A stretch of DNA of 64,000 bases, taken from positions 496,001 to 560,000 of the forward strand of contig QPGO01000003.1 in assembly GCA_008632985.1 (NCBI GenBank). The letters run 5' to 3'. How positions within the stretch are numbered: position 1 is the first letter of the stretch; each line of letters starts with the position of its first letter. This DNA is from Psammoneis japonica (taxonomy: Eukaryota). This document shows, in pieces, positions 1 through 64,000 of this stretch. A model generated the notes under the pieces. That model saw nothing but the letters and a program-made list of their open reading frames with translations. It had not been told where the DNA came from and did not search any database. Position numbers and translations under genes: made by a program.

Positions 1-2753
1 TCGCTGATGAGTTTGGATGGGGCACCACGCTCACGGATCTGATCCTCGAGTGTGTTGACAAACTCTTTGTCCGTCTTGGTGCCGCAGACGTCAGTGACGG
101 TAGACTCGGTGCCAACAAACAGTTGGGCGCTGGTGCAACCAGAGTCGATGGCCGGGGTGTCGGCACAAACGGTGTCAGTGGCGACAGGCTTGTTGCGGCG
201 GTGCACATTAAGGGCGGGGTTGGGGGATTTGCAGGCCTTCCTAAGGTGTGTGCCGGCGGGCATGCGGGCGTGCTGCGTGGTGCAGTCAAAAGTACGATGG
301 ACCGCATCGGCAGGTGGGAAGCCAAAGTGAGGCCGAAGAGACTCGAAGGGGGGGTCCTTGGGCTGTACAGTGCGCTCCGGGGGCGGAACGTCGTCGCCCT
401 TGGGGTCAATCGCGTGTAGATGACACTCACAGAACACGTCGTCGTTCGGAATGAGGTGATCATCGAGGGCGGACGCATGATCGGCAGACAAGGAAGCGGA
501 CATGATGGTCTCGTTGACAACGACACGATGACGGCAGTTGCCGCACTCGTCAAATGGGTTGGCAGTGGGATCGTCCTGCAGGTCAGAGATCGCGTCGTGC
601 CACTGGTCGTCATCAGTGACAGAGTGATCGAGGACGGAAGGGTCCCATGTGTCATCACCAGTGAGGATGACATGGGGCAGGGTGTCCCATTCGGCGTCAG
701 TGTAAGGTCGCATGGCAACATGAGGCAGGCCGGCCTTGATGTCAATGGGGATGACACAGCCATCAGGAGTGGCAATGCGTTGCAAGCCGTTGGGCACCTT
801 GACAGAGCGATCGTTGACATCCTGTTTGTGCCATTTGAGCTGGCCGCAGGAATGGATGGTCTTGCCCTTGCCCGTGCACGCGCATTGATGGAGGATGGCG
901 ATGACGGGACCACGCTGGGTCTCAATGACGGCACCAGCGGTGACAATGGGGATGTCCACCAATTGATGGTCGTCAATGCCCTGGACGTCGACTTGGCGAG
1001 AGGTGCGTGCAATGACGCGAACGTCGTCGCCAGCAATGCCGCCGTTGGCACCACGATCGACTAGAGCACCAGTGCGTGTGGAGCGATGAGCAGAGGCAGA
1101 GCAAATGACATTGTGGTTGTTGACGCGACGGCAAGTGCGGCCGTCAAGTTCCATGTCATCGGCAGAAGCTGGCGGGGCAGAGTGAGCGGCGGATGGCCCT
1201 GGTCGACCAGCATTGGGGGCTTGGTTGGGAGACAACAGACGTTGCAGATCACCGGGTGGCAGTGGCTTGCACTTGGTGAGGTGCGCCAGGATGGGATCAT
1301 CTGAAGTGGCACCCACATTTGGAGCGGGGTCACCAGAGTCAGCAGGAGTCGTGTTGGACAAGTTGACATCACCGTCACTCCCAAGGTGTTGATCGTGAAG
1401 GTTGGCTGCAACAGACTCATGGCAGTTGCTGGCTCGCGGGTTGTGGGGAGGCAGACGAGAATGCTCAAGGATGATCGCCTTGGAGGAATGGGGCAACGAA
1501 TCCCAGATCCGTTGGTGGTCGGGAGGGAGACGTTTCCATTGGTCACCGGTGAGGCTGGGACCGCGGGTGCAGGCAGCATTGGCCTGAAGGATGTCAATGT
1601 CGCTGTCAATGTCGCAGAACACATCGTCGGATGGTTCCTTGGAGCAGACGTCGTGTGCGCACATGGCGCGTCGGGGAGCTCGAGGTGTCGTCTTGGGTTG
1701 AAACGTGCTGTCGCATTGAGCTGCCGCGGAGAGGAGCAAGCCACAGCATTGATCGCATGTGAGGCTCTTGCCACTCTGCGTACGATGCTGATCAGCTTGG
1801 TTCTTGACAGCACGGAGTTCCTCAACAGGGTGTGCGGCATTCTCGAGCATGACGCGCTTCTGTCCTTCAGAGAAGTGGTCACTGGCCGGGATGAGTGCCT
1901 CGTGCTTGCGCAACTGATCTTGCCAATGAAGGATGAACCCGTGGGTCGGACCTTTCCAAGTGCCATCACCAAGACGTGCGGTGGTGGGGTGCGTTGGCAA
2001 GGTGGAGGACTCGACAGATGCGCGGGTGGAGGCAAGCGCGCACTCAGACAAGGCGCGGTGGACGGTCTGGGCATCGGAAGACCCCACATTTTCGCAGATG
2101 AGAGCCTTGCCCTTGTTGGTGAGAAGGATGCGTTCGAAGACGGTGAACATGTGCTTTTGCTGTTCAGCAAAGAGCCGTTTGTCTTCGGGGCTGGTCGGTT
2201 TGTACGACGAGTCTAGAATGCATTCGACGTCTTGGGCATGGGCTTGTGCCACAAGTGAGGTGTGCCAAGTGTGCCACTGCTTGTCGGATTTGAGAGCCGT
2301 GAAAGCGGTGGGATCACGCTTGATGCCTCGCTTGAAGTCCCGCACCGGGTCGCGTGCCTTGGTCGGGTTGGTGACATGCGGAGGTGCGAGGGGTGAGCTG
2401 CCGATGGACACAGAAGACATGCAGTCGGGGCTGAGGCGGCAGGCAAGGAACTCGTCATGCGTGAACAACGAGGAGTCATTGGCAACGTCAAGACCTTTGT
2501 GTGCTTTGACAATGTACAGACTAACTAGAGCTGCTAACATGTTCTTATAACCACGGGGCAAAGGGATCACATTAGTGCCGTTGTCGTGCTCAAGCGAGTC
2601 GATTTGGGACGGTGTGAACGTGAACAGTTCTTGATGCGAGTCCGTGCCGTCTTGGGCCAAAGCCAAACGAAGAGGGCTCCCAGCACCTTGGGCAAGCACG
2701 GTTCCAACAACGTGCTCGAAACCATCGGTTTGTTGCTGACGAGTGAGAACCAT
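1..2753 (-). mobile_element. Ty1/copia (CoDi-type) gag-protease-integrase reading frame, running off the left edge of the window
   Basis: Hand translation of the minus strand from ATG 2753 (absent from the ORF track, probably because it has no stop inside the window): MVLTRQQQTDGFEHVVGTVL...DFKRGIKRDPTAFTALKSDKQW (gag), ALVDRGANGGIAG (aspartic protease), RNKPVATDTVCADTPAID...FVNTLEDQIRERGAPSKLIS (integrase). The start and the window-edge segments are in the same frame. Many expected Tyr appear as Cys/His. Confidence 0.9.
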
Positions 2754-3173
2754 GGCAGACAAAAGTGGTGTCAGGACAAGCAATTCTTGTTGGGAAGCGA
2801 AGGTAGACTTGAAGCTTGGGTGAGAATGGACTTGACTTGAAATGGACTTGACTTGAAATCTTGAACTGCCTTAAAATCAGAAGTCGCCGGGCTTTGCCAT
2901 CCCGTTCGTTGTCAAGTGCTAAACTTCCTGTCCGGTCTGCAGAGTTGTGCCGGCACGTCCGAGCCCGCAGCTGGTGGCGCTTTGGGTTGCTTGCAAGCAG
3001 AGCAGCGGGTTGTAAACCCCTGCAGGCAAGCTGACTAGAGGTGGACAAGACCCCCGAACCATTCTTATTTTGTGTCGGTTGGATTTCCCGATCAGGCTGG
3101 CCAGTTGACGTAGGCATCAGGCGCTGTGGATGAACGAACAAACGCGGGAAAGCACCCTCGCCCCAACGCAGGC

Positions 3174-3624
3174 TGCAATCACGGCTGCTTGCTCTCACAG
3201 TCAGTCTCGTGGACCTGGCAGAACTGCAGAGCACCAGCAGTCCGGGGCAGATCCGGCACAATGGACTCGGTGTGCTTGTAGAGTGGTGGCAAAACCGCAT
3301 TCCGAAGAGTGGGTGCAGGTTCTTGGCCGTGAAGACATGCACACACACACATGTCCTCAGCGACGAAGATCCTTGAACATGTGGGGTTCTTGACCGTCAA
3401 CCGATGAATGGGTGTGTCAAGGGATGAGGATCAAGGACAGACTTGGATGTGACCGTTGAATGCATGTCTTCAGCGATCAAAGGTGGCGCAATCAATCCAG
3501 ATGTCCAGCGGTGAGGAGACTTGACGGTGACGTTAACTTCCTGCCAATGCCCTGGCATTGAATGCGCGCAGACTTGCCGATGCATGTAGAACACACATGC
3601 GGAGGTCCACGTAGAATTGAAACA
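3174..3624 (-). repeat. Probable 5' LTR of the left-edge copia element
   Basis: Non-coding segment upstream of gag, starting TGTTTCAATTC at 3624 on the minus strand; contains a (CA)n run near 3340-3351 that may be a converted TATA tract. The partner LTR lies outside the window, so the inner boundary is a guess. Confidence 0.35.
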
Positions 3625-3650
3625 GCGTCGTTGGCAAATCAACGACGACG

Positions 3651-5448
3651 ATGACAGTCTTGCTCATTGTCATCGCGAGGCGCCAAAAGAAGCTATTTTG
3701 CATGGCCAACCAAGCCAAGCTTCGCTCCTTCCGCACTGCACCTCGCTACAAGCATGGATGCGAAGTTCCCCGGAACTACAAACACGCCATGTCACTGGAC
3801 GAACGCAACGGCAACCGCAAATGGGGAGACGCAACTAATCTTGAGATGGACCAACTCGACGAATACGAAGTCTTCCATGACTGCGGGCCCTTCGAGTCTT
3901 CCACTCCTCCTGTGGGACACAAGAAGATCCGAGTGCACCCAGTGCACGACGTGAAACACGACGGTCGCCACAAGGCACGACTCGCAGCCGACGGGCACCT
4001 CACGGACGTACCTGTCAACAGTGTCCACTCCGGAGCAGTCTCCCTCTGTGGCCTTCGGCTGATGATTTTCCTGGCCGAACTCAACGAGTTGGAGACATGG
4101 GCCACCGACATTGGCAATGCCTGCCTTGAAGCCACCACCAAGGAGAAGCCCCACATTGCAGCCGGACCCGAATTTGGCAAACTCGAAGGACACATCCTTG
4201 TCATCCACAAGGCCCTGCATGGACTGCGCAGCTCCAGTCTCCGCTGGCACGAGCGCTTCGCCGACTGCCTGCGAGCTGAAGGCTTCTTCCCCTGCCGCGC
4301 CAAACCCGACATTTGGACGCGCAGGAACGGCGACCACTGTGAATGCATTGCCGTTTATGTGGGTGACCTTGCCATTGCCATGAAGGATCCTCAATCTTTC
4401 GTCGATGCTCTCACAGAAAAGTGCAAGTTCAAGCTCAAGGGTGCGGGACCCATTGAGTTCCATCTGGGTTGCGACTTTTCCCGGGATCCCGATGGAACCT
4501 TGTGCCTGTCTCCGCGCAAGCACATCGAGCGCATGGTCGACAGCTGCGCCCGACTGTTTGGGGAGAAACCTGCCACCAACGCCCTGTCACCTCTGGAGAA
4601 GGGTGGCCACCCCGAGCTGGACACTTCCGAGCTGCTGGGACCCGATGGCGTTCACAAGTTCCAGTCTCTTGTTGGTTCACTCCAATGGGCAGTGTCCCTT
4701 GGTCGAATTGACATTGCCACGGCCGTCATGTCACTCTCTGGCTTCCGAGCTGCGCCCCGTCAAGGCCACTTGGATCGTGCCAAACGCGTCTGTGGGCACC
4801 TCTCCAAGATGCGACACGGTGCTCTCCGCGTTCGCACAGAAGAGCCCGACCATTCGGATCTCCCTGCTCCTGCCCATGAATGGATGCATTCCGTGTGCGG
4901 CGAAGCAGAAGAGATGATCCCGAAGGACGCTCCACCGCCCCTTGGCAAGTTCGTCACTGCCACCCACTGCGTCGATGCAAACTTGTGCCATTGCATGCTC
5001 ACCGGACGCTCTGTCATGGGAATGCTCCACTTCCTCAACAAATTCCCGGCTGATTGGTTCTCTGAGAAGCAAGCCACCGTGGAGACTGCGACCTGCGGGT
5101 CGGAATTTGTTGCCGCAAGGACTTGTGTCGAGCAGATCATTGACCTGCGCATCACCCTGCGCCACCTTGGCGCCCCGATCCACAATGTCAGTTGCATGTT
5201 CGGTGACAACAAGTCGGTTGTAGACAGTGCCACCATCCCGCACTCCAAGTTACACAAGCGACACACCGCACTGTCGTTCCACCGTGTGCGTGAGGCAATT
5301 GCCTCTGGTTGCCTTGAGCTCCACTTCATCGAAGGCTCCCACAACCCTGCTGACATCCTCAGCAAGCATTGGGGTTGCTCCCAAATCTGGGACCTTCTCC
5401 GCCCCCTCATGTTCTGGAACTTCATTTCATCCAAAGTTGAATCTGTTT
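3651..5448 (+). pseudogene. Ty1/copia reverse transcriptase-RNase H fragment, 5'-truncated and mutated
   Basis: ORF 3651..5507 contains VHDVKHDGRHKARL, TDIGNACLEA, KALHGLRSS, AVYVGDL (degenerate YVDD), VDANL, ETATCGSEF, GDNKSV and NPADILSK. It is opposite in orientation to the upstream gag-pol, and its 3' end is interrupted by a TRIM. Confidence 0.92.
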
Positions 5449-5894
5449 TGCAATGTGCAGCTGCTGACAAGAGCCAATGTATCACGGCGACGTGTTGCAG
5501 TCTTTAAATGTCACAAAGGGCGTGACAAAAATAACCTTTTGTCTGCGTGCATGCTGCATTGTGAATTCACAGCGGAGTGGTGCATCGCAACCACTGGGCA
5601 GGAGGCCAGGGGTTCGAAACCCGAGTGGGAGTTGTCTGCAGCAACGTTGATCACTGTCGAAGGCGTAAAACTCTGTGCAGTTCTGCATGTTCCTTCGCAC
5701 GCACCCACACTGTTCTGCCAAAACCGTGCAGTGTCAGCACACGTTAGTAAAGAGCCGTGTGGACGCGTGATGCATGGGGAGGAGTGCAACACACAGCTGC
5801 CAACAAGAGCCAATGCATCACGGCGACGTGTTACAGTCTTTAAATGTCACAAAGGGTGTGACAAAAACAACCTTTTGTCTGCATGCATGCTGCA
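5449..5894 (+). mobile_element. TRIM-like non-autonomous LTR element, copy A
   Basis: 110-bp direct repeats 5449-5558 and 5785-5894 (TG...CA), PPT GGGGAGGAG before the second repeat, 4-bp TSD GTTT (5445-5448 and 5895-5898); homologous copies at 18657 and 48327. Confidence 0.92.
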
Positions 5895-5919
5895 GTTTCT
5901 GTGACTCCTCAAGCAAACT

Positions 5920-6130
5920 GGGGAGTGACAGGATTTGAACAGGATTCAGGTGCGCGCGAAATGTCACGCGCTGTTTAGTTCACCGCGCACAGTTTTGTGT
6001 GCTTTAGTTCCGCGCATTCACGCGAGACGCAGTTTGCTTTCGAGCCACAAGGCTCACAAGAATGACAACAGCAGCCCGATTGTGCCGACTCACACGTCTT
6101 TCGGCTCCTGTGACGGTCTCTGAGCGGAGA
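5920..6130 (+). repeat. Possible PPT (GGGGAG 5920-5925) and start of the 3' LTR of the + strand copia
   Basis: Purine tract followed by TGACAGG just after the RNase H coding end once the TRIM is removed. The LTR end is not identifiable. Confidence 0.35.
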
Positions 6131-6203
6131 CTCATCTGCCATTTAGACAGCAGCAAGGAGCTGTTGTTTGAATTCTTGCCACTTGCCTTCATTTTCTGTC
6201 AGT

Positions 6204-6822
6204 GTGTGGGAGCCAAGCTGCATGTGAGAAATCTGCTCAACAAGCAATGTGGATGCTGCACTGGCCATTGAGAGCTGGCATGCACACAAAAGAAGCTGAG
6301 AGCACTGGCATGCTTTGTGCCATGACTTGCCCAAGTGGCAGCCAGCATGATTTGACATTTGGCTCCTGACATGGTTTGAAGAATGGCTCTCTGTGTGGAG
6401 GATCTCACCATCATCTTGTTTGCTTTTGGACTTTCATCTCACTCTTTGGAATGAATCATTTGGTTTGTCATTTGGCATCAGCAGGTTCACCCTGCTGTTT
6501 TGCAAGTTTGTGGTTTGCCAAGATGCCTGTGCAACCCACAACCAATGCAGACTGCCAAGGCAAGCATGACGAGCATCACAGGAAGCCCATCAGGACTTCC
6601 TTTTGGTCGTGACATTGACTTGCTGGCTCAACAGCTCCGCAGCATGCCAACACAGTGCAGTGCTGCATGTGGCATGTGGGAGCCAAGCTGCATGTGAGAA
6701 ATCTGCTCAACAAGCAATGTGGACGCTGCGCTGGCCATTGAGAACTGGCATGCACACAAAAGAAGATGAGAGCACTGACATGCTTTGTGCCACAACTTGC
6801 CCAAGTGGCAGCCAGCATGATT
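6204..6822. repeat. ~148-bp direct repeat pair (6204-6351 and 6675-6822) in a degenerate repeat block
   Basis: Both copies read tgtgggagccaagctgcatgtgagaaatctgctcaacaagc...gcagccagcatgatt; differences are mostly CG/TG, CG/CA and TG/CA. Confidence 0.8.
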
Positions 6823-7668
6823 CAGGCAAACCACCATTTTGTCATCAGTGCGCTTCACACCGGCAAAGCAGAAGAGCACACACAAATGCAGCAAGTTGCA
6901 GCAGATGCCATGTCTCTGACAGCCACCATCATGCCTGACAGCATCCACCCTCAGATTTTAAGATCTTTTCAGTGATGAGCTCCTTGAGCTCACCATGGAT
7001 GCTGTTGTCATTCATTGTTGACACCGTGGATGCTGTTGTCATTCATTGTTGACACAACAGCTTCAGCATCGGGGGGTCTTCTTGGTGCCGACATTTCCCT
7101 GCTTGCCTCTGCCTTCTTCCTTTTCTGTGTCTGGGGGGCACATGGCTTCCTTCTTGCAATTGAAGGCCCTGCCTGTCAGTGCCACAAAAACACATGGTTG
7201 GCAAGCAAAAAGAGTTTTGATGTCCAGTTGCGAGTTGAGGCGTGTCGCAACCAAAGCCCCCCAAGGAAACCAGACAAATGTGTCAACCTCTTTGTGACAA
7301 TGGCAGAAAAAGACCCCTAATGAAAAATGAGTGATCCCACGATGCTTGCCATGTCGAGACGCATCAAAGTGCAACACGTCAATTTTGATGCCAGTCATTT
7401 GGAAACTTTTGGTCCCATCGACTTTGTCGCGCGTGCTTCACTGCGGCAAAATTTCAGCCACGGACGCCGGGAAAATGTGAGGCCGCGCCGGTAAGGTTAG
7501 TTCGCCAATGGAGATTTTTTTTTCGATGTTTGAGGCAAAATATTGTGGATACATTCTGTCCAATGAGTCTATTTGTCTATTTAGGTACTTGGCCTTTCTA
7601 TCTTGTCTTCTCAACCGGTGCAGAGGTCCATCTCGCTCCTTGTTTCAACTTCCAACACACCGTCTCAT

Positions 7669-9284: not shown

Positions 9285-9569
9285 TTTGAAAATATATTGT
9301 ATCCAACGCAACCAACCAACCAAAAAGGTGTGCTGTTTGCTCGATGCGTTGTGAATATGAAGTAGGATGACCGCTCTCTCTCCTTTTGTTTGATGTCCCC
9401 GAGTGATGTTTCGACTCCGAATGCCGATGAGAAGCGCGGAATCCATCACTTTGTACGTGAATCTCTCGTAGAAAAGCTGGTGTATCGTAAGTATCTTTTC
9501 CGCAGAAAAAGTGTGGCTGTGACGCGGTGTTGAAGTGATTCCAGTATGGTTCTACGCATTTCTACACCG

Positions 9570-12500
9570 TCCGTTGGATCGCGGTGTTGAAGCACGACTG
9601 CCGATGTGGTCCGCGATCACGACTGACGAAACCTGCGCATGCCAACGCGACGAGCTGCGCAGCCCACCACCGAGAAGAGCTCCTGTGGTCATGTTGTTTG
9701 TTCCCACAATGAGGGTTGCAACATTGCCAATGCCAAATGTGACAAGCAAAATCTGAAACAGTGACAACTCACGTGATGGAACAAACAAGAAAGAACAAGA
9801 GACAACGTGTCTCTTTGCATCAGTGGTGCCCCTTTTGCTTCAAAGAGCAGATGAAAGCAGCAGAGCAGCTGGAGACAGACAGTTGGGGCAAGCAACGATG
9901 CCAACAACAACAAAGAAAAAAGTTTGATCTGAGACAGAAAAAGGTCATTTTTAGCTGAAACTAAGCATTTGAGCACCAACTGTTGCTCATGACTGAGGGC
10001 AAAAGAGAGCCACAGCTCTGACCGGCACTCTGCATGAATGAGCACGCTCAAACTCTGGCAGCTCTCACCAACAAGGTTTTGCTTTGTCAGTGCAACCAGC
10101 ACTCTTGACTGAAAATTCAAGTTATCATCAACAACAAGGTGCACCTCCAACACAGCGCACCTTGCATGTTGAAGCTCATTTTGATGGCGCTCTCTTTCCA
10201 CAGCTCTGATGTTTTTGCTTGTGTTGCTGGTGAGATCACACAGTGTGGCAACTCAGGATGGGGCGCAGGGCTTCATAATGTGACAGCAACCACCAGGAGC
10301 AGCCCAAAAATGCTGTTCTCATGATGCCAACCCAAACATCATTGCATTGCATGTGTCTCAGGCCAGAGCAGTGATCAGAGAGTGTGCTGCGCGGCTGGCA
10401 AGGCAAATGCAAAAACAACTCCCCAAGAGGAGGGGGGGGCCATTCTTGCCATGCACCAACAACAAAACACAGCATGCTTCAGCATGTTGGCAATTCCTTG
10501 GCATTTGCCAAATTGCCACTCATGAGCACATTGAGATGTGCATTGCTTGCATTTGCCTCCCTGCCACTCGGCTCTGCCTCGCATGCTGATGTCAGGTTGC
10601 TCATGATGGCGACACAATGCTTTGACCACATTTTATTGGATCTGAGGGCAGCATGCACTGGGACAATTGGCACCCTTGATGTCACCACCACACACCATGC
10701 ACCAAGGCACCAGTTCAGCCATGGAAGCATCTCAGCTCACAGGGGCTTTTCTCTGTGAACCTTGAGGCTTTTTTTGAGGTTCGCAACAAACCTGGAGCAA
10801 CAAAAGAGAAGGTGTCATCTGCTGCAATCTTTGTGTTGGCAATGACAACAACAACTCCTGGGCAGTTCTCAATGTGCTGCAAAAAGAGTCTGACATTTGT
10901 CATGTTGTGTCAACTGTGCTGCCTTTGAATGACTTAGAGTGCTTTGAGCTTGCCAAAGAGCCCTCTTTGGCCTCATTTTAAAGACAAGGGCCACACTGTT
11001 TTCTTCTTGGCACTGGCAAAAACAGCTTGGGTGTTCTTCCCAGTTTCCACAACCCATTCTAAGAGTGACCCACATGTGATGCACTTGCCAAAAGCAGCAG
11101 GCATTTGAGATCAAAGCATTGGCAGCCTCTGCCATCACTCCTGATGCCCACAGAGAGAGTGTTGCTTGCACCAGTCATGGAACAATGTGCTTCTCTAAGT
11201 CCTAAATGTGCACTCCAATGTTGAAGCACTTGCTTGCAAGTGAGAGCTTTAAAAAGAGTGCGCTTGGTGGCTGAGCTTTTTCAGCTGCAGTTGAGTCCAA
11301 ACCATGGAAGGGAGCCATGTGGTGGCCCAATCATTGACCATGTGAGAGCCGGCCAGTGTGCACAACACAACATTCCCCCCCCCCTGTTGCTGACGTTGTC
11401 TCCACTGTGCTGCACCATGAGGCTGGGCTGAGACAATGAAGCTGCATGTTTCTGATGTGCTGCCATCAAAGTCAGTGGCCACACTTCTCAGTGATTGTCA
11501 TTTCAATGATTTGCAAAATCAATTGCAAGAAAAAACACTCTAAAGATGCCCCAATCTTGTGTGTGCAATCTGTGGCAAAAACATGCACAGACCTTTGAAG
11601 ATGCTGATTTCCACAAAAAGGCTAGCATCAGCACAGAATAGAGCCACCATTTGTCTCATCAGTGCAAAGCAACGTGCACTCATTAAAGAAGATGGCTGCA
11701 CTGTTCTTGAGCACCTCACAAAAGAGAAGCTCCAGGCCCAAAATGCACCTGCTGTCCAAGCGAGCACATTTGAAAACTGTGGGCTTCTTCCCAACTCTGT
11801 TGCGGCTGCACTTGCAAGCATCATGGTCTTGCCTGTGTGACAAAAACTGAACAAACAAACAAACAAACAAACAAGAGCTTCCAACAAGGCAAAAATGAGG
11901 AGGTTCGAACGCGGCTTGCACCCTCTGTGCTCTGTGCCGCTAAATCGCAAAAGACAGAAACGCGCTGCTCCAAATCTGCAAGAAGTCGTGTGGTGCTTCC
12001 AGCAGTGCTTGTGCTGCTTGCATGCTGCTTTTTCAAAATTTGTTTGATTCTGGGCTTCATTGAAGCTGCCCCAAAGCAGAGCTCAGGTGGCCTCGCTTGA
12101 AAACCCTGCCTCTGCCGGTGTGCTGACCTGCTGCTCTTGCATCTTAGCTGCTTCTTTTCAAAGGCCTTTGGCAAGCCCCAGTTTTTGAAAGATAGTCCGT
12201 CAAAGGCACCATGCTTGCTGGAAGAGAAGCAGCTACCCCTGGTCAACGTGAGTGACAGGGTTGCTTGACAGGGTTGCTTGACTTTGGCGCCCTGCACCTT
12301 GTGCCAAAATCTGGGACAGCACTCTGCCAGTGGGAGAAGTTTCTGGATTTTGGGCTCTCCCATGGTCACCTTGGATGTTGCCTGTTTGGCCATGATGTGC
12401 ATGCCAAGCTGCTCCTTCCTTGCTTCCAGCATCTTTCCACCGCCAGACCACGAACGTGTTGCAGGGGTGTTGTGTGTGCATCAAACAGCGCTTGTTGCTG
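9570..12500. mobile_element. Highly degenerate transposon-derived block, family not identified
   Basis: Very low TpA and CpG, TG/CA-rich, no credible ORF. A ~55-bp segment near 11300-11358 resembles 20652-20708. Confidence 0.5.
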
Positions 12501-19102: not shown

Positions 19103-19106
19103 AATG

Positions 19107-52174: not shown

Positions 52175-52189
52175 ACCTGACCGCCACCT

Positions 52190-53600: not shown

Positions 53601-54002
53601 TGTGGGTGTGCGGTAGTTTACGCCGTAGAGATAGAAATAGTAACAACAGGCAACTTGGGAGGTGCGAATTGACCAGTCGCTAAATTGTGAGAACAAAAAC
53701 TGCTCTGCTCGACAACCAACAAGAATTTGTAAAGAACGAGAAGTGACTCATATTTGTGCCGAACTCAACACAGATGAACGTAGTGAACAGACTTAGCAGG
53801 AACGAGAAGTTCTTGATTGCATATAAGAAAAGAAGAAGTGAGGCTCAGTTCTCGATTTGAACCCAAGACCTCCGACCTCATTCGTTTCTCGAGCTGTGAT
53901 TGGGTGAGTCGTTGATGGTGGTTGATGGCGGTTTCTGAGCGGTCATTGTCACACGTAGGACTTGATGGTATACTGATACATGAATATATGTATATTCTCA
54001 CA
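53601..54002 (-). repeat. 5' LTR
   Basis: Partner of 47070-47471; retains most TpA sites. Confidence 0.95.
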
Positions 54003-54735
54003 TGCATGTAAAAAGATTTTGAATCTGAGATGGTCTCAAAAAGTTGCTAGCTAGTCTTGTTTTCAGCCCTGAACACTTCACATATATAAACTCCGCGGCA
54101 AGATGTCACGGTCGACCGCTTTTGCTAGGATCGGCCTGTCAAGCAATATAGAAGCATGTCGTGATAATGCTGTGACCACGGCCATAAACCAAAATGCTAT
54201 TTCTAACACGCGACAAATTGCGTGCTGGTTGAATCATTTCATCAACATGTACAATGGAAAAGATCTTGGAAGGTTTCTTGCACTAATAGAGAGCTAATTG
54301 CTTTTCTTTTCTTTGACAGGAACAGCACTCAGAATTCGTATCGATTTCGTGCGTGTCCGGACAAATAGCTACTCAGTAGCAAATACATTCCCAGGAGCGG
54401 CGGTCAATGCAGAAATGAGACCGCGGCAAGAAAGCGATAAGCATAGTCCCTCATCATGCGATGATGTCATCAAATTGAACACAGACACAAAAAGCGGAAA
54501 CTAGTTTATATCATTTTGAAATACAATAGAATCACTGGCGTGGCTTGCTGCGTTCGCAAATGCAATGACAACGCTGCAGGTATACGCTGCTCGCCAGAAA
54601 TATACTTGATGATTCGGTCGTACTGAGAAAGTAAAGTATTACAAAGCTTGTAGCTCTGCCGATTTTTCTGAAACGGCTGATAGAACAGAGAAAAACACCT
54701 TGGCACCTTCCAAAAGGTGCGTCGTGCCTGAGGCA

Positions 54736-57168
54736 TCAGAAACGCCAGTCCCAGTCGACAGAGTTCGCCTTCGAGCGGCTAGCCTTTTTGGCCTTCGCGA
54801 TGCCAACTTGAACAGCTTCCTCCAATTCTTCCCGGTGCTTTGCGTTCGTAGTTTCACGGAGCGGCGTTGCGCGATGACAAATTCCCTTCCTTTGCTCATA
54901 CTTGCACGGTACATTGCCCGGCACATCTTTTGTTCCACTGACATCATGGTACCAAAAACGATGGACTTTGTCCTCTCGACCGGTTCGAAACTGATTCACG
55001 TCTCTATTTTGATGACTTTCCGTCAAAAGCACTGGCCGCGAATCCAAAATTATCTCATCCTGGTCGAATGTATTCACAACGCTTGTCTGTTGCGCTTCGT
55101 GCCCCGTCACCTTCTCAGCCGGTGCCGACCGCGCTTCCATCATCGCTAGTAATTCATCTTCAGTCCACCGCGTTTCTCCAGAAGTCTGAACTTTCTCCGC
55201 GTCAGCGCTATCGTCTACTACTACATTCTGAGTGCCCCTGGCACATTTCTTGACTTGCTTCTGACTAGCGACGCAAACCTTGTCGAGAGCCGCACGTTGG
55301 CAACAACATGCATTCACCAAATGGTGCTTTCTCTTTTTCAGAGGTACTCTTTGGTCGATATTTGTCCATCGTGGTTCGATCTCTTCGGATTCCACGGCTC
55401 CCAAGGCGCCGTCGACCACGGTTGCCTCTGATTGAATGAGTACAGCGCCCCAAGCAGTGTTGATGTCGCCATCTCTAACAGCTGCTACAGATGTGGGTAA
55501 GAATCGACTATCTGAGCCATCAGAATGAGCCGTCAACAAAGAGTCGACATCGGCTTCAGTTTGAGCATTCCGTAGCAGGCTTCTCCGAACACAATTCCAA
55601 TGATTTCTGGCTTGTCTCTCCGATCTATTGGGAAGCCGGCCGGCGATCGCGACCCAATTATCACCCAACTCCTCTTGGGCCTCAAACAAATATTTAGTTT
55701 CTTCGCCGGTCCATGGTGCAATCGACAAGGATGGAAGTTGGGCGATGCCAGGAAATTGCATCCCGCTTTCCGTGTTTTCCTCGGGTGTACTATCGCCTAA
55801 ATGTACGGTCTCGATACCTTGAACTGGCGCAACGTCCGAAGCAGTCTTGCTACTATCTCCAACATCCGCTGATGCATCGGCACTGCCAACGGACCCCGAT
55901 TGATCCGTCCACGATGCAACGGCATTCGCTTTAGTGTGAGCGTTCCTCGGCATGGTTCTTTGAAGACATTTCCAACGATGTCTGACTTGGCGTTTCGATC
56001 TTCCCGGCAAATGCTTGGCAATTAGGGTCCACTTCTTTCCTAGCTTCTTCTTTTTCCGAATGAGAATCCTGTCTTCCTCTTGCGTCCACGGGCTTTTCGT
56101 CAACGACGGATCCAAGACGCCTTCCCATCGCTCCCGTAAGCGTGCAGGCCGTCTCCCAGGAAGAAGCTCGGAAATGTCTTTGAATTGCATGCCTTGTGCG
56201 ACCGCCTTCACGAGCGTCTCGTCCTCCTCGATTGTAAAAGGGCCATTCTTTATACCGGGTTTGAGGTGCTAGATATGAATGACGGACAAAAAAGATCAGT
56301 GAGACGAGAACACGCAATAATTTCGTTACAACGCCCAGGAAAATAGATTCACCTCATACCACCGGGTCTGGCATTGAGAGGTTGTACGCAGACCCTTGAA
56401 ATGTTTTTCGGATATTACTTTCCAACTACGCGTCCCTTCTGCTGCCACCGCATCGCGGAGAAGTTTGTCTTCCGATTGCGACCAGAGCACTCCTGCATTG
56501 ATAGCGCCTTCTTTCTCGGCCTCACCAACGCTTCTCCTTAGTTTCTATTGATGGATCATCACGGGGTAATGAAGAGTGAGAGTACGAGGGAGACACGACG
56601 GAAAACAAACGAGCCGAAGTATCACTTACATCACTCCATCGCTTCCGGCATTGCTCTCCATTACGCACACCAGCAAAACATTTCTCGGCGATAATTTCCC
56701 ATTCTTCACCTTCCATTGCCACGGCGTTTCGAAGTAATGTGTCTTCCTTGTCGGTCCAATTCTTGGCACGGGTACGAGAAACCGTGAGCGATTCTGTTTC
56801 CTCGAATTCAGAGTCTGAGTTGTCCTCGTAAACGACTGTTGTTGTGCACTGTATCGCACAATTGTTACCAAGACAAAAGGAATCACATTAGGAGGACATG
56901 GGTGTGAAACGGAGCATCACGTAGAAAACGAAACGAAACACGATGGAATCCTGGAGCATCGACCAAAGCAACTCACCTTCCGCTTCAGACGCTCACGCCC
57001 TGGTACCTCACTGTTTCTATTTGCGCCCAACGTATTTGACATGGCGTTTGTCACCGCCAATGATGTGCTCGCCGCGCCATTGCTCCACCCGGGACTGATT
57101 TCGAGGCCGGTCAAAGATGCGTCGTCCGTGTTGTTGCGCAACGATTCTCGAGGTAGCGTTCCGCTCAT
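54736..57168 (-). CDS. Multi-repeat MYB/SANT protein, paralogue 1 (several introns; boundaries approximate)
   Basis: Repeats such as WEIIAEKCFAGVRNGEQCRKRW, LLPGRRPARLRERW, WTQEEDRIL...KWTLIAKHLPGRSKRQVRHRW and WTGEETKYL...NWVAIAGRLPNRSERQARNHW; GT donors at 56976 and 56629. Confidence 0.8.
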
Positions 57169-58949
57169 TGTCGCTGTCGTCAATTGCTCTACAGTAATAC
57201 AGGGAGCATCTGCCACTCTCAAAAGGACTCACTCCAATGCTCTTTGTCAATCCACCTGCGAGATCTGAGCGTTGCGTTGTCTCAAGCTGGAAGCGCTCCG
57301 TTCAAACAGATTCAAACCGTTGGCACGCATGGAATCGTCGGTAGAAATCCACGTGCAACACCAGCAGCAGTAGAATCTGTACCAGCCGCTACAGCATCCG
57401 CGCCCGCAAATGTCGACGCTGTTCTTCCCCAACCCGCCTTACTAAAAGTTGCAAATGGTTTCAGTTCCTCTTACTTTCTGTGTCTGCTCCAATGCAAGAC
57501 CTTTCTTGTAACGAGAATCGCAACCCAGTCTTCAGCGCGCATTGCGGCTGTGAACAATCCCATCGTTTGCGGCAGCAATTGTTGATCAAAATGGTTCCGC
57601 TTCTGTCTTCGTCACAATTCCGTCTCGCAGCGATTGATGCTTGCGCACCAACTAAATCCGTGAGAGTTGATGGCCAAGCTTCCCGCGGACAAGCACCATT
57701 CAAATACAATCATCGACATTTTTTTCCATCAGTTCACAGCTCCACAAGAATCATTTCTTCACTTGCAGGGGCTTGCAGAAACATGTGCGCTTTTCATTCC
57801 CATCAATCTTAAAAATCCAATGTGTGCTTTGCATGCAATAAAACACATTTTGGACGATCCATGCTTTGCCTTGTTTATTCATGCTGGAATCGCGCGCTCT
57901 TTCTCTGCCTAGAACTCATCCTTATTTTCCCACATGCAATTTCAATCAACAAGTCGCGGTCTTGAATGAGCAGGGGGGCATCTTTGTCCCAATGTTGTTT
58001 TTGCTGAAGCATGTCCAATCGGAATAGCTTGCGCGAGATGCTGGAGAAGAATCGCATCACCTCGTTTGCCAATTTTTTCCAAAATCTCTTTACTCCCCTG
58101 TCGCATCGCTTGAGAGCGTGAAATCCAGTCCATGAATGGAACTGAATTGTCGGATTATGTTCTTTATTCTTTCATCGCATGTAGAGGCCTGCTAGCTCGA
58201 ACCAAAGAACGACGGTGACGGATAAAACCACACAACAATAAATCATCGATCATCGCAGAGTTGGAGTTTCATCAAGTTTCAAGTTGCAAAAATCAAATCT
58301 TGATTGATGATTTACTTCATCATCATGCGTGCGTCCAGGCCAGGCAGCGCGCAGCAGGCTCACAGTTTTCGTAAGAGCACAAAGCACTGAGTGGGATAGC
58401 TCATGATTTACCGGAACCCGCCTTTCTCTCTCTTTCCTACTCTCTAGCTAGAGTAGGGCCCTCTAGCTACTGCTACTCTAGAGCTACTCTACTACAGTAG
58501 AGAGTAGACTATTCTTCACTCCCAAACGGGAAAACTCCAAAACTGACCAAAAGAAGATCTGGACAAATGATTGGATGACAGGGAGGCTGCTCTCTAGAGG
58601 GTCTGGCGAGTTCAGGTTTCCCGTTGATGGGGTCATAAAAAAAAAGTACAAGTGAGAAGCTGGCAAGTGGCAAGCAAGACCAACAAGCATCACCGCATCA
58701 CGCAACATTGTCATCAAAGTCAAACACACGAGAGACGAGTGGGGTGCAATTTTTTCTAGAATGTGGGTTCAATGCTGCGGATGGCTGCGGTCGCCAATCC
58801 AACTGCGCTTTGTGGGTGTAAGCAGCACAAGCTGGAAATCTTTGAAACCGTTTGTAAGTGAGAAAATGAATTGTTGCATGTAGCGAGAAAGCTTGAAGAA
58901 CATTTTGGAAAGGTTGACAATGAAATCTTGAGCCCCTTCCTCCAAAGGG

Positions 58950-61888
58950 TCACCAGAAGCACAAGTCCCAGTCAACTGAGTTCGCATCCAGGGAGACAGG
59001 TTGCTTGGCATTGCTGGCACCGAGCGGGCGCATTAGCAATTTCATGGAGCGCGGGTACGCTGCCACAATTCTCCGTCCTTTGCGCATCTGGCGAAACTCC
59101 CAACATGTCTGTGGTGCCGTTGACAACATGGCGCCAACAGCCCCGGTTCTCCTCTTGACTGTTTGAAACTGGCTCACGTCTCTATTTTGATGGCTTGCCT
59201 TCAACAACGTTGGTCGTGATTCCAGAAGTGCTTGTAGTTCATCTTCGGTCCAAGGGACTTCCACCAAAGTCTGATCCTGTTCGAATGTGTTCACAACGCT
59301 TGTCTGTTGTGCTTGGGGCCCCGTCACCACCTCAGTCGGTGCCGGCCGCGCTGCCATCATCGTTCGTACTTCATCTTCAGTCCACGGCATTTCGCCCAAC
59401 GTCTGATCGAGATAGAACACATCTTGACCGCTAGAGCGCTGCGCTTCGGACCCTGTGATTTCCGAATCCTGGGAAACAACATCCAGCTCATGCAAATCGG
59501 CATCATCATCATCCAAGCATGCTCCTGCATGCAGGGGATTGACTTTTGCACGTTTCTCGACGTGCTTCTGACCATTGATGCAGAGCCTCTCGGCATGCGC
59601 ATGACAATGGACATCCGCATCCACCCAAAGTGCTTTCTCTTTTTCAGAGGAACTCTTCGATCGTTTTCCGTCCATCGTGGTCTTGTCTTCTGAAGATCTG
59701 TGGCTCTTGGGGCGCAGTCGATCTTTGCTGCCTCCTCCGATTCACCGCACCCAGCAACCCAGGAGGTGTTCATGTGGTTGTCGCTAGTCTCTTCCACCCA
59801 CTTGCTTTGCAGCAAGGCATCATCTGAGTCTTTAGTGCGGGCCGCCGACAAAGGATCCGTCCATGGCGATGTCGACAAGGATGGATTGAGCACGAGTGTA
59901 GTGCGCCCGCGCCCTTTTACTTGCTCGAGTTGTCGTCCAGGCTGCAGTTGAGCGATCTCACAAAATTGCATCCCGTCTTCCACAGCTTCGATCGTATCTT
60001 CCCGGGGTGTCCATTGTCGTTCTTCACGGCCGGTTTAAGATGCTAAAATTTACCCAAATTGAACTCGTACAAGTCAGCAGGCAGTTGAAAAAAGAACGAG
60101 AACGCCAAGGGCACACACAGCAGACAATCAATGCTTTACCTTCTGCCATCGGCTTTGGCACGAAAACGCAGTGCGCTCACCGTTAAAGTGCCTTTTTGAA
60201 ATCACTCCCCAATGATGTCGTTCAAAACCTTCCGCTTCAACCGCTCCACAAAGAATTGCGTCTTCAGACTTCGACCACCTCCGGTGACGAATTGGCAAGT
60301 GCGATTCTTTGTCCTCTGCATCTTTTGCATCTCCCCGCTCACGACATTGTGCACGCTGCCAAAAATTTATTGCTTGCGACACAGACCTTCCAGGCAACCG
60401 ATCAGCGACAGCATTCCAGTCCTCATGACCCAGTTCTTCGACAGCCTTGAAGAGAATGGCACTTTCCTTGTCCGTCCAACGGAGCCCTTTCCTTTCTCCA
60501 TTGCTCCTTTGCCGGTTTCTTCCTTGTCTTTTTTGCCGCCAACGGTTTTTGACATCGTTTGCCGACCTTCCCGGCAAATGCTTGGCAATCAAGGTCCACC
60601 GATTCCCCAACTTCTCTCGTTCCGTCATGAGAATTTTTTCTTCCTCTTGCGTCCAATTGCTTTTCTTCAACGACTGATTGCTTCTTTGTGTGCTGTTCCA
60701 ACGGTTTTTGACATCGTTTGCCGACCTTCCCGGTAGCTGCTTGACAATCAAGGTCCACCGATTCCCTGACTTCTCTCGTTCCATCATGAGAATTCTGTCT
60801 TCCTCTTGCGTCCAAGGGCTTTTCTTCAATGACGGATCCAAGATGCCTTCCCATCGCTCCTTTAAGCGTGTGGGCCGTCTCCCAGGAAGAAGCTGAGCAA
60901 TGTCTTTGAATTGCATGCCGTGTGCGATTGCCTTGACAAGCGTCTCATCCTCCTCGATTGTGAAAGGGCCACCATCTAGACCGGGTTGGAGGTGCTACAT
61001 TTGAATCACGGACATAAAAGATCAGTGAGACGAGAACATGCAATGACGACGTTACAGTGCACAAGAAAATAGATTCACCCATGCCACCGGGCCCTGCATT
61101 GAGACATTGTGCGCAGACCCTTGAAATGTCTTTCGGATGTTGCCTCCCAACTGCTCGTTCCTTCTGCCGCCACAGCATCGCGGAGAAGCTTGTCTTCCGA
61201 TTGTGACCAAAGCACCCTGCCATTGACATTTACTTCTTTGTCGGCCTCGCCAATGCATCTCTTTCGCTTCCAATTTCCAATCATCACGGGACAACGACGA
61301 GAGTGAGGGTGCGAGCCCGCTGCGACCGAAAGCAAAGGAGAAGAACTTTGCTCACAAAAATCCAATGCTGCCGGCATTGCTTTCCCGTGCGCACACCAGC
61401 AAAGCATTTCTCAGCGACAACTTCCCATTCTTCACCTTCCATCACAACGGCGTTTCGAAGCAGAGTGTCTTCCTCTATGGTCCAATTCTTGGCATGGCTC
61501 CGAAAAGTTGTGTGCGGTTCCGTTGCCGCAATTTCTTTGTCCGGGTTGTTCTCGCATGCGACTGTCTCTGTGCACTGCATTGCAAAATTTTACAAACAAA
61601 GGAATCTCGTGAGGAGACGGATGGAAAAGGAAGTGTCACGGTAGAAACGAACATGATGGAATCCTGCGAGACCTCTTGGCAAAGACAACTCACCGCTTTC
61701 TTTAGATGCTCACGGCCCGATTCGTCACTGCTTTGATTCGATTCCAACGTATTCGACATGTCACTTGTTGCCGCCAATGATGCGGTCGCTGCACCTTTGC
61801 TCCACCCGGGACTGAGAAAGAGGTCGGTCAAGGATGATGCTTCGTCGGTGTGAAGCAACAACGGGTCTGGGTCTTTTGTTTCACTCAT
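58950..61888 (-). CDS. Multi-repeat MYB/SANT protein, paralogue 2, with extra repeats; probably decaying
   Basis: ORFs 61284..61580, 61075..61407, 60128..60916 and 58950..59983 are homologous to paralogue 1 including introns; frame changes occur in the 3' part. Confidence 0.72.
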
Positions 61889-63280
61889 TGTCGTCAATGC
61901 CAATCGATCCTTGTGTTAGAAACAACAACCGCCAACACGTTGACATCAACGGCGAGATTTGGATTCGGGGACTCTGTTCGCAACGGTCGGTTGGAGCTGG
62001 AGTGTTGTTTTCTGTAGAAATCTGCCGTCTGACCCGCAGCACTCGCGCAGAACTTGTGCGAGTCGCTGCGGCAAATCCACGGAATTCAAATTGCAACGGC
62101 GCCGTTTCAAAAACGCGACCAAAGTGCAGTGACCCATGAAATCAAAATGTGCCGGTACGTGCATGACGAGGAGCAGCAACTCTTCATTTCTTCTCCAAAT
62201 GACGATTCACCTCTTGCTTTGGACGATCCAACGACGAGGCTCTCTCGCTGATTTGTGGGAGGCTTCCAAACAAGATGCACCTTGAATCGGCATCGAGAAT
62301 GCATGGCATTCGGGGATTTGCCAATGGGCTGCAAACATTCGTGTGCACTTCCACGGCGCAAGTTCCACATGTTCAAAACTTCTCTGATTCCAGTGAGGCG
62401 ACTCAAGAAATCTCTTCCATCTCGGTCTGTGGATCGTTTTCCTCCGATGAAGCGCAAATGGTGGCATCGCCGAAAGCATGGCATGTCAGAGGGGTGGCAC
62501 TTCAACCAACGGTTGAGTTGGTCGATTGTAGTTTGAACAAGAATCGTCGCTTCTTCTCGCACACAATTTAAAGAAAACCCCGTTCACAAACGTGACACAG
62601 ACGGAACAAGACGATTTGAGGCTGTCATTTGCAATGCAATTCTCTCTTTTGCCTTGGTGCTTCCTCCACTGATTGTGCTTCGTGTCACTTTTGTGCACAA
62701 CAGTGGCTTTTGAACTCCGACCGGACAGCACCGCAGCAACAAAATGCTTTTTCCGCCATGCAGAAAAGAATCGCCAAACACATCAGAGCCATCATTGCTC
62801 AGATGCCAAGACAACCACCCTCTCTCCATGCAATGTGGGTTAGAAATTGCCTCATCACAAAAGATTCACAACTGCGAACTATTCACATTCTCGTCAGCAG
62901 GGTTTTTCACTCCCTGCTCGAATTGATGCAATGCGGTTTTCATGTTTCAGCGAGCCAATGGATGCAACACAGCTGCTGCAAAGCCAGCCAGCAAAAGGAC
63001 CACACATCCACGCAAGAGATTTGACAAAAGCGCGTGACGTTTGTTGTTTCAATGCACTTTTTCGCAGCACACGTTTCACTTTGAATGCTTTTCCATGACG
63101 TTGCTTCTTTCCATGAACAGCAACCTATGGTTCAAGGGATTGTCTGCACAATGACATGCTCCAGCGGTCGTTTTGTTGCCCTGTGCCGCCAGCGATGGTG
63201 GCACCATTGTGTTGCGCTTTCCAACAGACTCCAAGATAAGACATGTCCTTGTGTCTTGTGTCTTGTGCGTTCCGCTGTTC

Positions 63281-63488
63281 TGGGGGAAGTCTCCAGCCAG
63301 CTGCTGGCTGAAAAAAGTCTGCTCGTCAGTGCGTTTGGGGGTTTTGCAAGTACAATTTTTACGTGCGCTAAAGAAAACGAGTCTGTCCAGCGTTCACCAA
63401 AACCCCTTAACGCACAGATCGACAGACTCTTTCAGTACAAATCCTACATAAAATTCTTCAGCCAGCAGCTGGCTGGAGACTTCCCCCA
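63281..63488. mobile_element. 208-bp MITE with perfect 32-bp TIRs (TG...CA) and 4-bp TSD
   Basis: TGGGGGAAGTCTCCAGCCAGCTGCTGGCTGAA (63281-63312) and its exact reverse complement (63457-63488); GTTC on both sides (63277-63280 and 63489-63492). Confidence 0.88.
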
Positions 63489-64000
63489 GTTCCCTGTTCC
63501 TCGTCTCGAAAGGCGGGTGTTCGGCAACCACGAACACCGAATTTTCAAAAAAAAAGATTGCCTCGCCTGCTCGCCGCCCGCCCGTTGACAGGCACCATCG
63601 TGACCGCCATTTTTTGTTCCCGGTTTCTACTTCTAGTAGGGCCCTACTGCTCTAGAGTAGAGAGTAGCTACTGTACTACTCTAGAGACTGTCTAGAGAGG
63701 TGCTGTTTACCCTAACCAGAAAGCTGCAGCAAAGAAAGGGGGGTAATCCTTGTTGAAAGTGATGATCATTGTCGAACAGGGAAAGAGACGCTGTTCTTCT
63801 CACAAGGAATCGTCAAACAATTATTAATTGAAATTCCGTTGCCGGATCGTCCAAACCATTCTGAATCAAACGCATAGGATGCACCTCTGAGCGTGACAAG
63901 CCAATCGAACGTTTTTGAAAATTGATCCTTGACAGAAAGGGTCGAGACATGAAAAAGATTCGTGTACACTCAATGGAAACACACTGAATTTTTTAAGAAC

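Follow-up and report, generated by a model that had tools for sequence, protein, structure and literature searches.

A 64,000-nt stretch of Psammoneis japonica DNA (contig QPGO01000003.1, positions 496,001-560,000; hereafter the window, from which all statistics come unless another source is named) raises the question of how the dinucleotide TA can be almost erased from copia retrotransposons and gene remnants while the adjacent genes keep it. The original prediction for this locus, made from the letters alone, held that TA is turned into TG or CA by a repeat-directed mutator, a reversed counterpart to repeat-induced point mutation (RIP). Our analysis confirmed that the TA-erased blocks are real and that the change ran in this direction, whereas targeting by repetition or homology was not borne out. 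A process that changes A:T to G:C at TpA in the chromosome after insertion, bounded by domains and probably carried out by a DNA adenine deaminase recruited to a chromatin or transcription-unit domain, is the explanation we favor.

TA-depleted blocks and the direction of change

Over the whole window, the observed/expected (o/e) ratio was 0.30 for TA, 1.44 for TG and 1.45 for CA. The deficit of TA was highly uneven, with TA o/e below 0.15 in 26 of 64 one-kb bins, between 0.15 and 0.4 in 14, and at least 0.4 in 24 (χ2 = 680, df 63, p = 2.5e-104). A two-state segmentation on TA density returned eight depleted blocks (1-7491, 9564-13271, 15251-24096, 25849-27876, 30791-33418, 41213-44303, 47151-53570, and 58882-63350), which total 38.7 kb of the 64 kb and nearly match the coordinates given in the original prediction. 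Pooled TA o/e was 0.09 inside the blocks and 0.57 in the rest of the window, so that the proposed check of TpA in blocks against genes gave clearly unequal values and the claim of TA-poor, TG/CA-rich blocks beside genes with normal TA held. Block calling of this kind is circular as regards TA itself; a structurally defined copia element, the Tyr content of translations and conserved-Tyr columns provide the non-circular checks.

Inside the blocks, TG o/e was 1.60 (1.19 in the rest) and CA 1.61 (1.22), while neither AA (1.25 vs 1.15) nor TT (1.23 vs 1.14) was depleted. Pooled CG o/e was 0.59 in the blocks and 0.93 elsewhere, and this measure divides them. The CpG-normal, or young, blocks (1-5900, 47151-53570, and 58882-63350) have CG o/e of 0.77-0.92 with TA at 0.07-0.15, in agreement with the prediction that CpG is still abundant in the younger elements, and the older, CpG-poor blocks have CG o/e of 0.13-0.48 with TA at 0.02-0.07. 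In the three CpG-normal blocks, the loss of TA (15.5 sites/kb) is about equal to the gain of TG and CA (15.0/kb), and GC content is 51-55%, compared with 47-50% in genes. The borders are sharp, blocks ending within ~200 bp. The extensions of the second and third blocks to 13271 and 24096 were rejected as mutation, being the naturally TA-poor 5′ parts of two FG-GAP repeat genes, common to both paralogs, and not leakage.

The direction of change was read from the proteins of two copia elements. In the integrase ORF (open reading frame) of the element at 47070-54002, Tyr accounts for 0.3% of residues and His and Cys for 5.3% each, compared with 2.3-5.1% Tyr, 2.7-4.9% His, and 1.0-2.7% Cys in 26 homologs (those aligned from 27 matches, the weakest being left out). 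At 13 conserved-Tyr columns, this element reads Y2, H4, C3, F3, and E1. The second copia ORF (3621-5507) contains 0.6% Tyr, compared with 2.5-7.1% in 120 homologs, and reads Y3, C8, H6, and F1 at 18 conserved-Tyr columns; other conserved columns are retained at 286 of 323, and the remaining changes are mostly A:T>G:C too (V>A, D>G, I>V/M, L>P, K>E). All five motif readings from which the direction had been predicted (KALHGL, VHDVKHDG, ETATCGSEF, CTDD, and HHHADNG) were found in the translations, and HYHADNG is the consensus among the 26 integrase homologs. Nor do the families already carry His or Cys at these sites, a possibility that the prediction had raised against itself: none of the 146 aligned homologs (26 + 120) is Tyr-poor. 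TA is also missing from all three codon phases of copia, with 4, 9, and 6 sites in 4.9 kb, while host ORFs of ~1.9 kb contain 13-15, 21-25, and 21-23 (two of the four controls), and the process therefore reads DNA and not codons. Thus, the conserved Tyr columns that now read His or Cys in two elements confirm TA>TG/CA as the direction of mutation. This direction, together with the loss of TA in CpG-normal blocks, also upholds the earlier statement that neither RIP (CpA>TpA) nor CpG decay can explain the pattern.

The blocks had been described as repeat-derived, which holds for the three of eight in which copia domains were recognized; two others contain host-gene remnants and three contain nothing recognizable. 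Block 1 (1-7491; TA o/e 0.14, CG 0.77) carries the copia reverse transcriptase (RT)/RNase H ORF at 3621-5507 (+) and a 450-bp element at 5449-5894. Block 3 (15251-22850; CpG-poor) holds a degenerate copia with integrase similarity at 16066-17031 (+) and a further copy of the 450-bp element at 18656-19108, and the block at 47151-53570 is the TA-depleted tract of the copia element at 47070-54002. The host-gene remnants are an ORF of the triose-phosphate-transporter (TPT) family (25917-26465, -) in block 4 (25849-27876; TA o/e 0.05) and the ORFs of Myb paralog B (58953-61410, -) in the CpG-normal block 8 (58882-63350). The content was unrecognized in block 2 (9564-12500; TA-depleted, CpG-poor), block 5 (30791-33418; CpG-poor, TA o/e 0.05), and block 6 (41213-44303; CpG-poor, TA o/e 0.02 with 4 TA in 3.1 kb), the last of which contains (TG)n tracts and a gap of 91 N (43333-43423). 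Bordering this gap, in the block with the lowest TA, are (TG)n tracts and a 149-bp direct repeat (96% identical; 43184-43570).

Timing, targets and sequence context

The element at 47070-54002 (-), 6933 bp in length, belongs to Ty1/copia by its direct long terminal repeats (LTRs; 5′ LTR 53601-54002, 3′ LTR 47070-47471) with TG..CA ends, its 5-bp target site duplication (TSD; TGCAT, 47065-47069 and 54003-54007), and the order gag, integrase, RT (gag_pre-integrs, E 1e-08; RVT_2, E 8e-21), which is collinear with its homolog P0001. Over the structurally defined interval 47065-54002, TA o/e is 0.147; the 6.1-kb interior contains 28 TA, and the DNA just outside contains 14-17 TA per 200 bp. The pol frame aligns with P0001 as a single segment of 1098 aa and without indels over 3.3 kb. 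Outside the LTR, all 13 in-frame stops of gag-pol are TGA, with one TAA within the LTR; such a result was to be expected, since A>G and T>C changes never turn a sense codon into a stop.

The LTR pair dates the change. Both LTRs are 402 bp and align without gaps, and their shared TSD and TG..CA ends mark them as products of a single insertion, identical when it occurred. Today 36 positions separate them (9% divergence), 33 of these being transitions. At 15 TA-family sites within LTR positions 1-272, the 5′ LTR retains TA at 14 and the 3′ LTR at none (7 CA, 7 TG, 1 TT). Conversion is partial in each LTR within positions 296-402 (6 and 5 of 13 sites), and five sites read CA in one LTR and TG in the other, which in the simplest reading represents two independent hits on an ancestral TA, although an ancestral CG is also possible. 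The nine differences elsewhere comprise six A/T positions of the 5′ LTR that are G/C in the heavily mutated 3′ LTR, one CpG>CpA, and two transversions. Conversion thus took place after integration, and it was fast: background divergence is ~1% (three transversions and one CpG change in 402 bp) and ~90% of the TA sites are converted, so that the process has outrun both CpG decay and indels in the same DNA. As a separate observation on a small sample, adjacent TA pairs (TATA) in the LTRs were converted concordantly in 5/5 cases (CACA or TGTG, never CATG or TGCA), for which chance would give about 1 in 16.

Conversion starts in the inner 5′ LTR, extends across the interior, and takes in the entire U3-like portion of the 3′ LTR before fading ~40-100 bp short of the end of the element. 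A TATA-like TTATATG lies at LTR position ~176-184, and the first conversion of the 5′ LTR is at 245. In this extent the tract resembles the transcribed unit of an LTR element; it also fits a chromatin domain centered on the element or with an edge-of-homology effect, which a single element cannot separate. A search of the window with purine/pyrimidine-collapsed seeds found no LTR pair beyond this one.

Sequencing run X1, the sole run containing window DNA, was used to examine the copies of this element. Contigs of this run at ~37-55x word depth match the mixed TG/CA sequence without differences (for example at 49259-49517), and the copia region reaches ~6-10x unique depth. Among the variants of family copies (40 of 441 variant rows), sibling copies hold TA or the alternative product; for example, positions 50595/50596 and 48828/48829 are TG in the window and CA elsewhere, and position 53167 is TG in the window and TA elsewhere. 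The copies therefore took their hits independently. In one read-contig, 47064 is followed directly by 54003, with TG..CA ends and five letters in common; this single contig has 30 letters on its shorter flank. The junction falls at the TSD and represents an empty-site allele, and the insertion accordingly seems hemizygous or polymorphic despite the 9% divergence of its LTRs. The unbroken pol frame, the TGA-only stops outside the LTR, and this empty site mark the element as young. A second run, X2, is RNA-like (one intron-like joint, 56268>56353), and the absence of X2 cover over copia carries no evidential weight.

The process is not confined to retroelements. Coding sequence, the position of an 84-nt intron, and 860 bp of upstream DNA are collinear between Myb paralog B (58953-61851) and Myb gene A with its upstream region (54739-57131, -; TA normal), so that B is a DNA-level duplicate for which A serves as the unmutated reference. 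The 1.17 kb that align best contain 35 TA in A and 12 in B. At the TA sites of A, paralog B reads TG 10 times, CA 9 times, TA 6 times, and otherwise 10 times, whereas at the TA sites of B, paralog A reads TG at none and CA at two. The TPT-family remnant is affected as well, its ORF containing no Tyr in 183 aa; a PDB sequence search with this ORF returned no match.

The TA sites that survive in the blocks (n = 179) differ in context from the 954 TA sites of genic segments (χ2 = 105, df 9, p = 1e-18). Relative to the genic sites, survivors are enriched for TTAA (4.7x), CTAA (2.5x), and GTAA (1.4x) and depleted of ATAT (0.08x), ATAC (0.26x), and ATAG (0.44x). Thus, a T before or an A after the dinucleotide protects it, and the reverse arrangement sensitizes it; given an overall TA survival of ~16%, most TTAA sites survive and almost no ATAT does. 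A:T pairs outside TA are converted at a few per cent, ~20-fold less often than TA. As to which flank decides the edited strand, 53 polarized events and a table of tetranucleotide excess, which were underpowered or confounded by native composition, gave no more than a weak excess of A followed by C.

Both strands are used. On the sense strand, TG exceeds CA in both copia elements of the window (o/e 1.67 vs 1.39 and 1.54 vs 1.28), while TG minus CA is -0.03 ± 0.11 in 41 unmutated copia loci, suggesting a modest bias to A>G on the non-template strand. Within the blocks, the fraction of neighboring conversions of the same type is 0.46-0.50, compared with 0.45-0.53 elsewhere, so that no strand-coordinated runs of TG or CA were seen, and a hand count of runs in the 3′ LTR gave 8 where ~10 were expected, which is not significant. 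A processive single-strand deaminase is not favored by this absence.

Independent data also contain the signature. A metagenome scan with the integrase alignment yielded 411 relatives, of which 79 loci were kept, and most of these copia loci have TA o/e of 0.45-0.8. Locus L051 was found in the assembly of a microbial mat, and its protein shares only 37% identity with the window element; TA o/e is 0.16 and CG 0.98. Over 4773 nt the sense frame contains 4 stops, each a TGA, and it includes a 620-aa ORF that lacks Tyr altogether. At reference Tyr positions, L051 reads Y at 3%, H at 17%, and C at 24% (10%, 20%, and 29% in the window element), compared with Y at 35-60%, H at 4-12%, and C at 0-1% in typical loci. 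Its surviving TAs (n = 37) follow the same context trend as those in the window, and the bias to TG on the sense strand is absent from it.

Candidate mechanism and rival explanations

The chemistry and course of the process can be outlined as follows. Hydrolytic deamination would convert adenine at 5′-TA-3′ into hypoxanthine, which pairs with C and is read as G, so that A:T becomes G:C at one or the other base pair of this palindromic dinucleotide; TG and CA would both arise because TA is self-complementary and thus presents an identical target on each strand, which a single hit abolishes. The process acts on chromosomal double-stranded DNA following insertion or duplication, and conversion approaches saturation within sharply bounded non-genic domains (dead copia, the nested small repeat, gene remnants), sparing adjacent genes. 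Recruitment would be to a chromatin or transcription-unit domain rather than by sequence homology. Proteins are destroyed by missense (Tyr>His/Cys, Val>Ala, Ile>Met/Thr), with GC raised and stop codons never created, so dead elements keep long open frames interrupted by TGA only. The results above establish the outcome, its direction, its timing after integration, the involvement of both strands, the preference for certain contexts, and the recurrence of the signature in other data. CpG decay would be a separate, slower process acting on the same DNA. An enzymatic origin, most simply a DNA adenine deaminase, is what we infer from this footprint. The main chemical alternative is thymine oxidation to 5-hydroxymethyluracil or 5-formyluracil (5hmU/5fU; TET/JBP-type), miscoding as C, and the data fit a hit on A or on its paired T. 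Of the candidates put forward in the original prediction, Pol-eta-type WA>WG error-prone synthesis is disfavored, given that AA and TT are not depleted, and a TadA-like adenine deaminase is a conjectural candidate.

The pattern seems to point to a DNA-editing activity not yet described. Our search of full-text literature, a scope that excludes subscription journals and supplements, found no published report of TpA>TpG/CpA hypermutation, and the pattern is not mentioned in the examined portions of a paper on diatom copia elements (PMC2806351) or of a 2025 preprint on diatom transposable elements. We tentatively raise the larger possibility that diatoms, and perhaps other algae, have a dedicated genome-defense editor: a natural enzyme that would recode A:T, by adenine deamination or in another way, at non-TTAA TpA in double-stranded chromosomal DNA. 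Recruited by position, perhaps in connection with transcription, to transposons and pseudogenes that have just been silenced, it would kill them irreversibly by missense without stops.

The same chemistry could instead be triggered by duplication, as in fungal RIP, with repeats above a length or identity limit being detected by homology. RIP itself requires roughly >0.4-1 kb and >80% identity. Three of the eight blocks are indeed multi-copy copia DNA, with the copia region at ~6-10x unique depth, Myb B is a duplicate, and the sparing of the outer LTR could be an edge-of-homology effect. The tandem FG-GAP genes (12556-15165, + and 22880-25429, +) provide a duplicated yet unmutated control: they are 93-95% identical over ~1.2 kb and lie 10 kb apart, and they keep their TAs (6/7 shared in one 300-bp window), although recent gene conversion could mask an effect. 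RIP normally mutates both copies of a duplicate, whereas Myb A is unmutated and Myb B mutated. Even within one insertion, the two U3 copies, identical at the start, met opposite fates (TA kept at 14/15 vs 0/15 sites). With regard to the FG-GAP pair, the identity of 93-95% covers the first ~1.2-1.5 kb of the aligned region and drops to 63-70% in the 3′ half, which looks like a gene-conversion tract or a mosaic duplication.

Repeat copy number gives a further control. The 450-bp element is nested in copia at 48324-48775 (+), where it breaks the pol frame, and has its other copies in the window at 5449-5894 and 18656-19108. It has TG..CA-ended terminal direct repeats of 113 bp and a tRNA-T-arm-like GGTTCGAAACC core, is not recognized by ARAGORN or Rfam, and reaches a contig depth of ~1000x unique depth; other members of the host copia family are without it (joint 48327>48798). 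Nearly all differences among copies of the 450-bp element are transitions (32 of 35 variable columns): nucleotide identity is 82-91%, and purine/pyrimidine identity is 1.00. At two sites, TA is found in 64% (15,803/24,744) and 55% (25,975/47,065) of contig depth, and the copia-embedded copy reads TG. The family thus mostly retains TA at ~1000 copies while the embedded copy has lost it, indicating that position decides and not family. The use of the 113-bp terminal repeats as an LTR clock was rejected, since copies 5449 and 48324 share the same inter-repeat differences. A second multi-copy piece that is not TA-depleted, TA-rich and polymorphic, adjoins copia at 46607-47017 (411 bp). It is bounded by a perfect 12-nt inverted repeat (GCTACAAGCTTA / TAAGCTTGTAGC), has a depth of ~17-20x, and is lacking in one contig (joint 46606>47018); possibly it is a MITE-like insertion (miniature inverted-repeat transposable element). 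Both unmutated pieces are short and perhaps below a length threshold. Diatoms carry DNMT4 genes, related to the RIP gene RID and of unknown function (PMC9998398), which would suit a homology trigger; DNMT4 would not be sufficient, because a cytosine enzyme would not yield TA>TG/CA. On balance, we regard a homology trigger as unlikely. The FG-GAP pair, the Myb pair, and the 450-bp family leave the prediction of repeat-directed or homology-targeted mutation unsupported, and "reverse RIP" is an apt label for the chemistry and not for the trigger.

Equally unlikely in our estimation is that no dedicated system exists and that TpA is passively mutable, in a context-dependent way, in silent or late-replicating chromatin (through 5hmU/5fU, N6-methyladenine, or error-prone repair), with slow accumulation. 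The lowest TA of the older, CpG-poor blocks, the tapering of conversion in the LTRs, the off-target A:T>G:C changes, and the lack of strand coordination would all be expected from such a process. It is at odds with TA loss that is near-saturated at ~1% background LTR divergence with CpG still at 0.80, which places the TpA rate far above the CpG rate in the same DNA. The absence of indels across 3.3 kb of frame and the apparently hemizygous insertion also speak against slow accumulation, and the WA motif of Pol-eta is not seen, AA and TT being undepleted.

Editing before integration, with deamination of retroelement RNA (ADAR-type A>I) or of cDNA in the course of retrotransposition, so that copies would be mutated on arrival, is very improbable and largely refuted. 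In its favor, LTR retrotransposons supply the best examples, mutation stops within the element and the flanks are normal, and the sense strand of two elements has more TG than CA; yet the LTRs of one insertion differ at TA sites, both strands are affected (Y>H and Y>C, with CA and TG interleaved), and the intron-keeping Myb duplicate and the TPT remnant are hit as well. ADAR also edits AA contexts and prefers a 3′ G, whereas AA is undepleted here.

An artefact of assembly, polishing, or base calling at modified bases is given similarly little weight. Modified bases cause systematic long-read errors, the window has one gap, and run X1 may be the assembly's own data; against this stand the X1 contigs that reproduce the mixed TG/CA sequence exactly, the TAs retained in the 5′ LTR, and a context rule that holds both in the window and in L051. 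That locus comes from an unrelated metagenome assembly and carries the same signature, so that errors of assembly or base calling in this one genome are an unlikely cause. Families that were always TA-less or adapted to avoid UpA, as RNA viruses and some transposons are UpA-poor, are refuted as an explanation by the replacement of catalytic or conserved Tyr (YxDD>CTDD, HYHADNG>HHHADNG) against normal Tyr in 146/146 homologs, by the TA retained in the 5′ LTR and in other genomic copies, and by the affected host-gene remnants.

Several points weigh against a domain-recruited adenine deaminase. The prediction had stated that no mutator gene is visible in the window, and correctly so: none of the 119 ORF translations scanned for domains (out of 164 ORFs ≥110 aa) contains a deaminase, TET/JBP, DNMT, or Y-family polymerase domain. 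We know of no natural enzyme that deaminates adenine in double-stranded chromosomal DNA. The strand-coordinated runs that a processive enzyme would leave are missing, and the argument on targeting draws on one window and one intact LTR pair, in which the outer sparing of the 5′ LTR could be an edge-of-homology effect. To call the blocks silent DNA is an assumption, as three of the eight have no recognizable content. The still lower TA of the CpG-poor blocks fits a continuing process, and a burst and a sustained high rate are indistinguishable. Support from other data has limits of its own: run X1, as possibly the data behind the assembly, is perhaps not independent, and the clear signature was seen in just one of the 79 metagenome copia loci. 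Four others (L043, L044, L073, and L079) have TA o/e of 0.21-0.31 with CpG at 0.15-0.24 and read His at 13-15% and Cys at 0-1% of Tyr positions, L043 holding two copies that are 84.5% identical; this Y>H without Y>C may reflect a strand-asymmetric or a different process.

Known systems, consequences and neighboring genes

The footprint has much in common with RIP in ascomycetes such as Neurospora and with the TCG-type hypermutation of Pucciniomycotina: dense, nearly pure transitions that are dinucleotide-specific, sharply bordered, chromosomal, and permanently inactivating, and, as in RIP, confined to mobile or duplicated DNA. It differs from RIP in changing A:T to G:C at TpA where RIP changes C:G to T:A at CpA, so that GC rises here and falls in RIP, and the excess of TpA in AT-rich DNA typical of RIP is replaced by a TA o/e of 0.09 in the blocks. 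RIP creates nonsense codons, which is impossible here (TGA-only stops, 13/13 in copia and 4/4 in L051), and its duplication trigger is unsupported in this one window. Fungal RIP is, moreover, premeiotic in timing and dependent on RID or DIM-2.

Editing by APOBEC3 likewise leaves a deaminase-type footprint with dinucleotide context fossilized in LTR elements. APOBEC3 converts C to U on minus-strand cDNA before integration, with a strand-specific G>A outcome, unlike the present case, in which changes fall on both strands and also in non-retro DNA, and the LTRs of a single insertion differ from each other. ADAR hyper-editing shares the A>G change and the preference for a 5′ U/T neighbor; it acts on RNA and marks only the sense strand after retro-copying, whereas the target here is DNA, on both strands, strictly at TpA and with AA untouched. 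Pol-eta WA mutagenesis (phase 2 of somatic hypermutation) mutates AA together with TA, unlike the process described here. The decay of 5-methylcytosine (5mC) at CpG also feeds TG and CA and is visible additionally in the older blocks (CG o/e 0.13-0.48), but it cannot remove TA, and blocks with CG at 0.77-0.92 already have TA at 0.07-0.15. The closest likeness in the proposed chemistry, A>I read as G, is to laboratory adenine base editors (evolved TadA) and to the TadA/ADAT tRNA deaminases. The natural TadA substrate has a U 5′ of the target A.

The only known form of hypermutation aimed at mobile DNA is C>T (RIP, APOBEC), and a TpA-specific A:T>G:C counterpart would be a new branch of genome defense in a major phytoplankton group. 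If a dedicated editor exists, it would be the first natural A:T>G:C DNA base editor, a chemical mirror image of RIP, and an adenine editor of double-stranded DNA would interest base-editing research. There are also practical consequences. Ages of diatom elements estimated from LTR divergence would come out too high (of the 36 LTR differences here, at least 27 stem from hypermutation), and the long ORFs of dead elements are liable to be mis-called as genes because TAA and TAG vanish. TA o/e offers a cheap, sequence-only marker of silenced domains, and Tyr-free, Cys/His-rich database "proteins" can be recognized as products of the process.

The window was judged to be eukaryotic algal nuclear DNA from its host ORFs, which encode a delta carbonic anhydrase, the two tandem FG-GAP repeat proteins, EamA transporters, a RING protein, a fatty-acid hydroxylase, a Methyltransf_32 protein, and Myb proteins. 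Among the best 120 matches of the carbonic anhydrase, the named relatives are diatoms (Seminavis, 61%; Thalassiosira exigua, 57%; and one MMETSP entry) and Pinguiococcus. ARAGORN and Rfam gave no match anywhere in the window. The gene at 38331-40602 (+), which adjoins block 6, encodes a long N-terminal part without a known family and a C-terminal Methyltransf_32 domain, and no link to the mutation process was seen. Overlapping long ORFs at 33751-35408 (-), in DNA of 60% GC, contain repeats rich in Pro, Ser, Thr, and Lys (PTPRPTP.., SPKPP..) and may encode a secreted or cell-wall protein.

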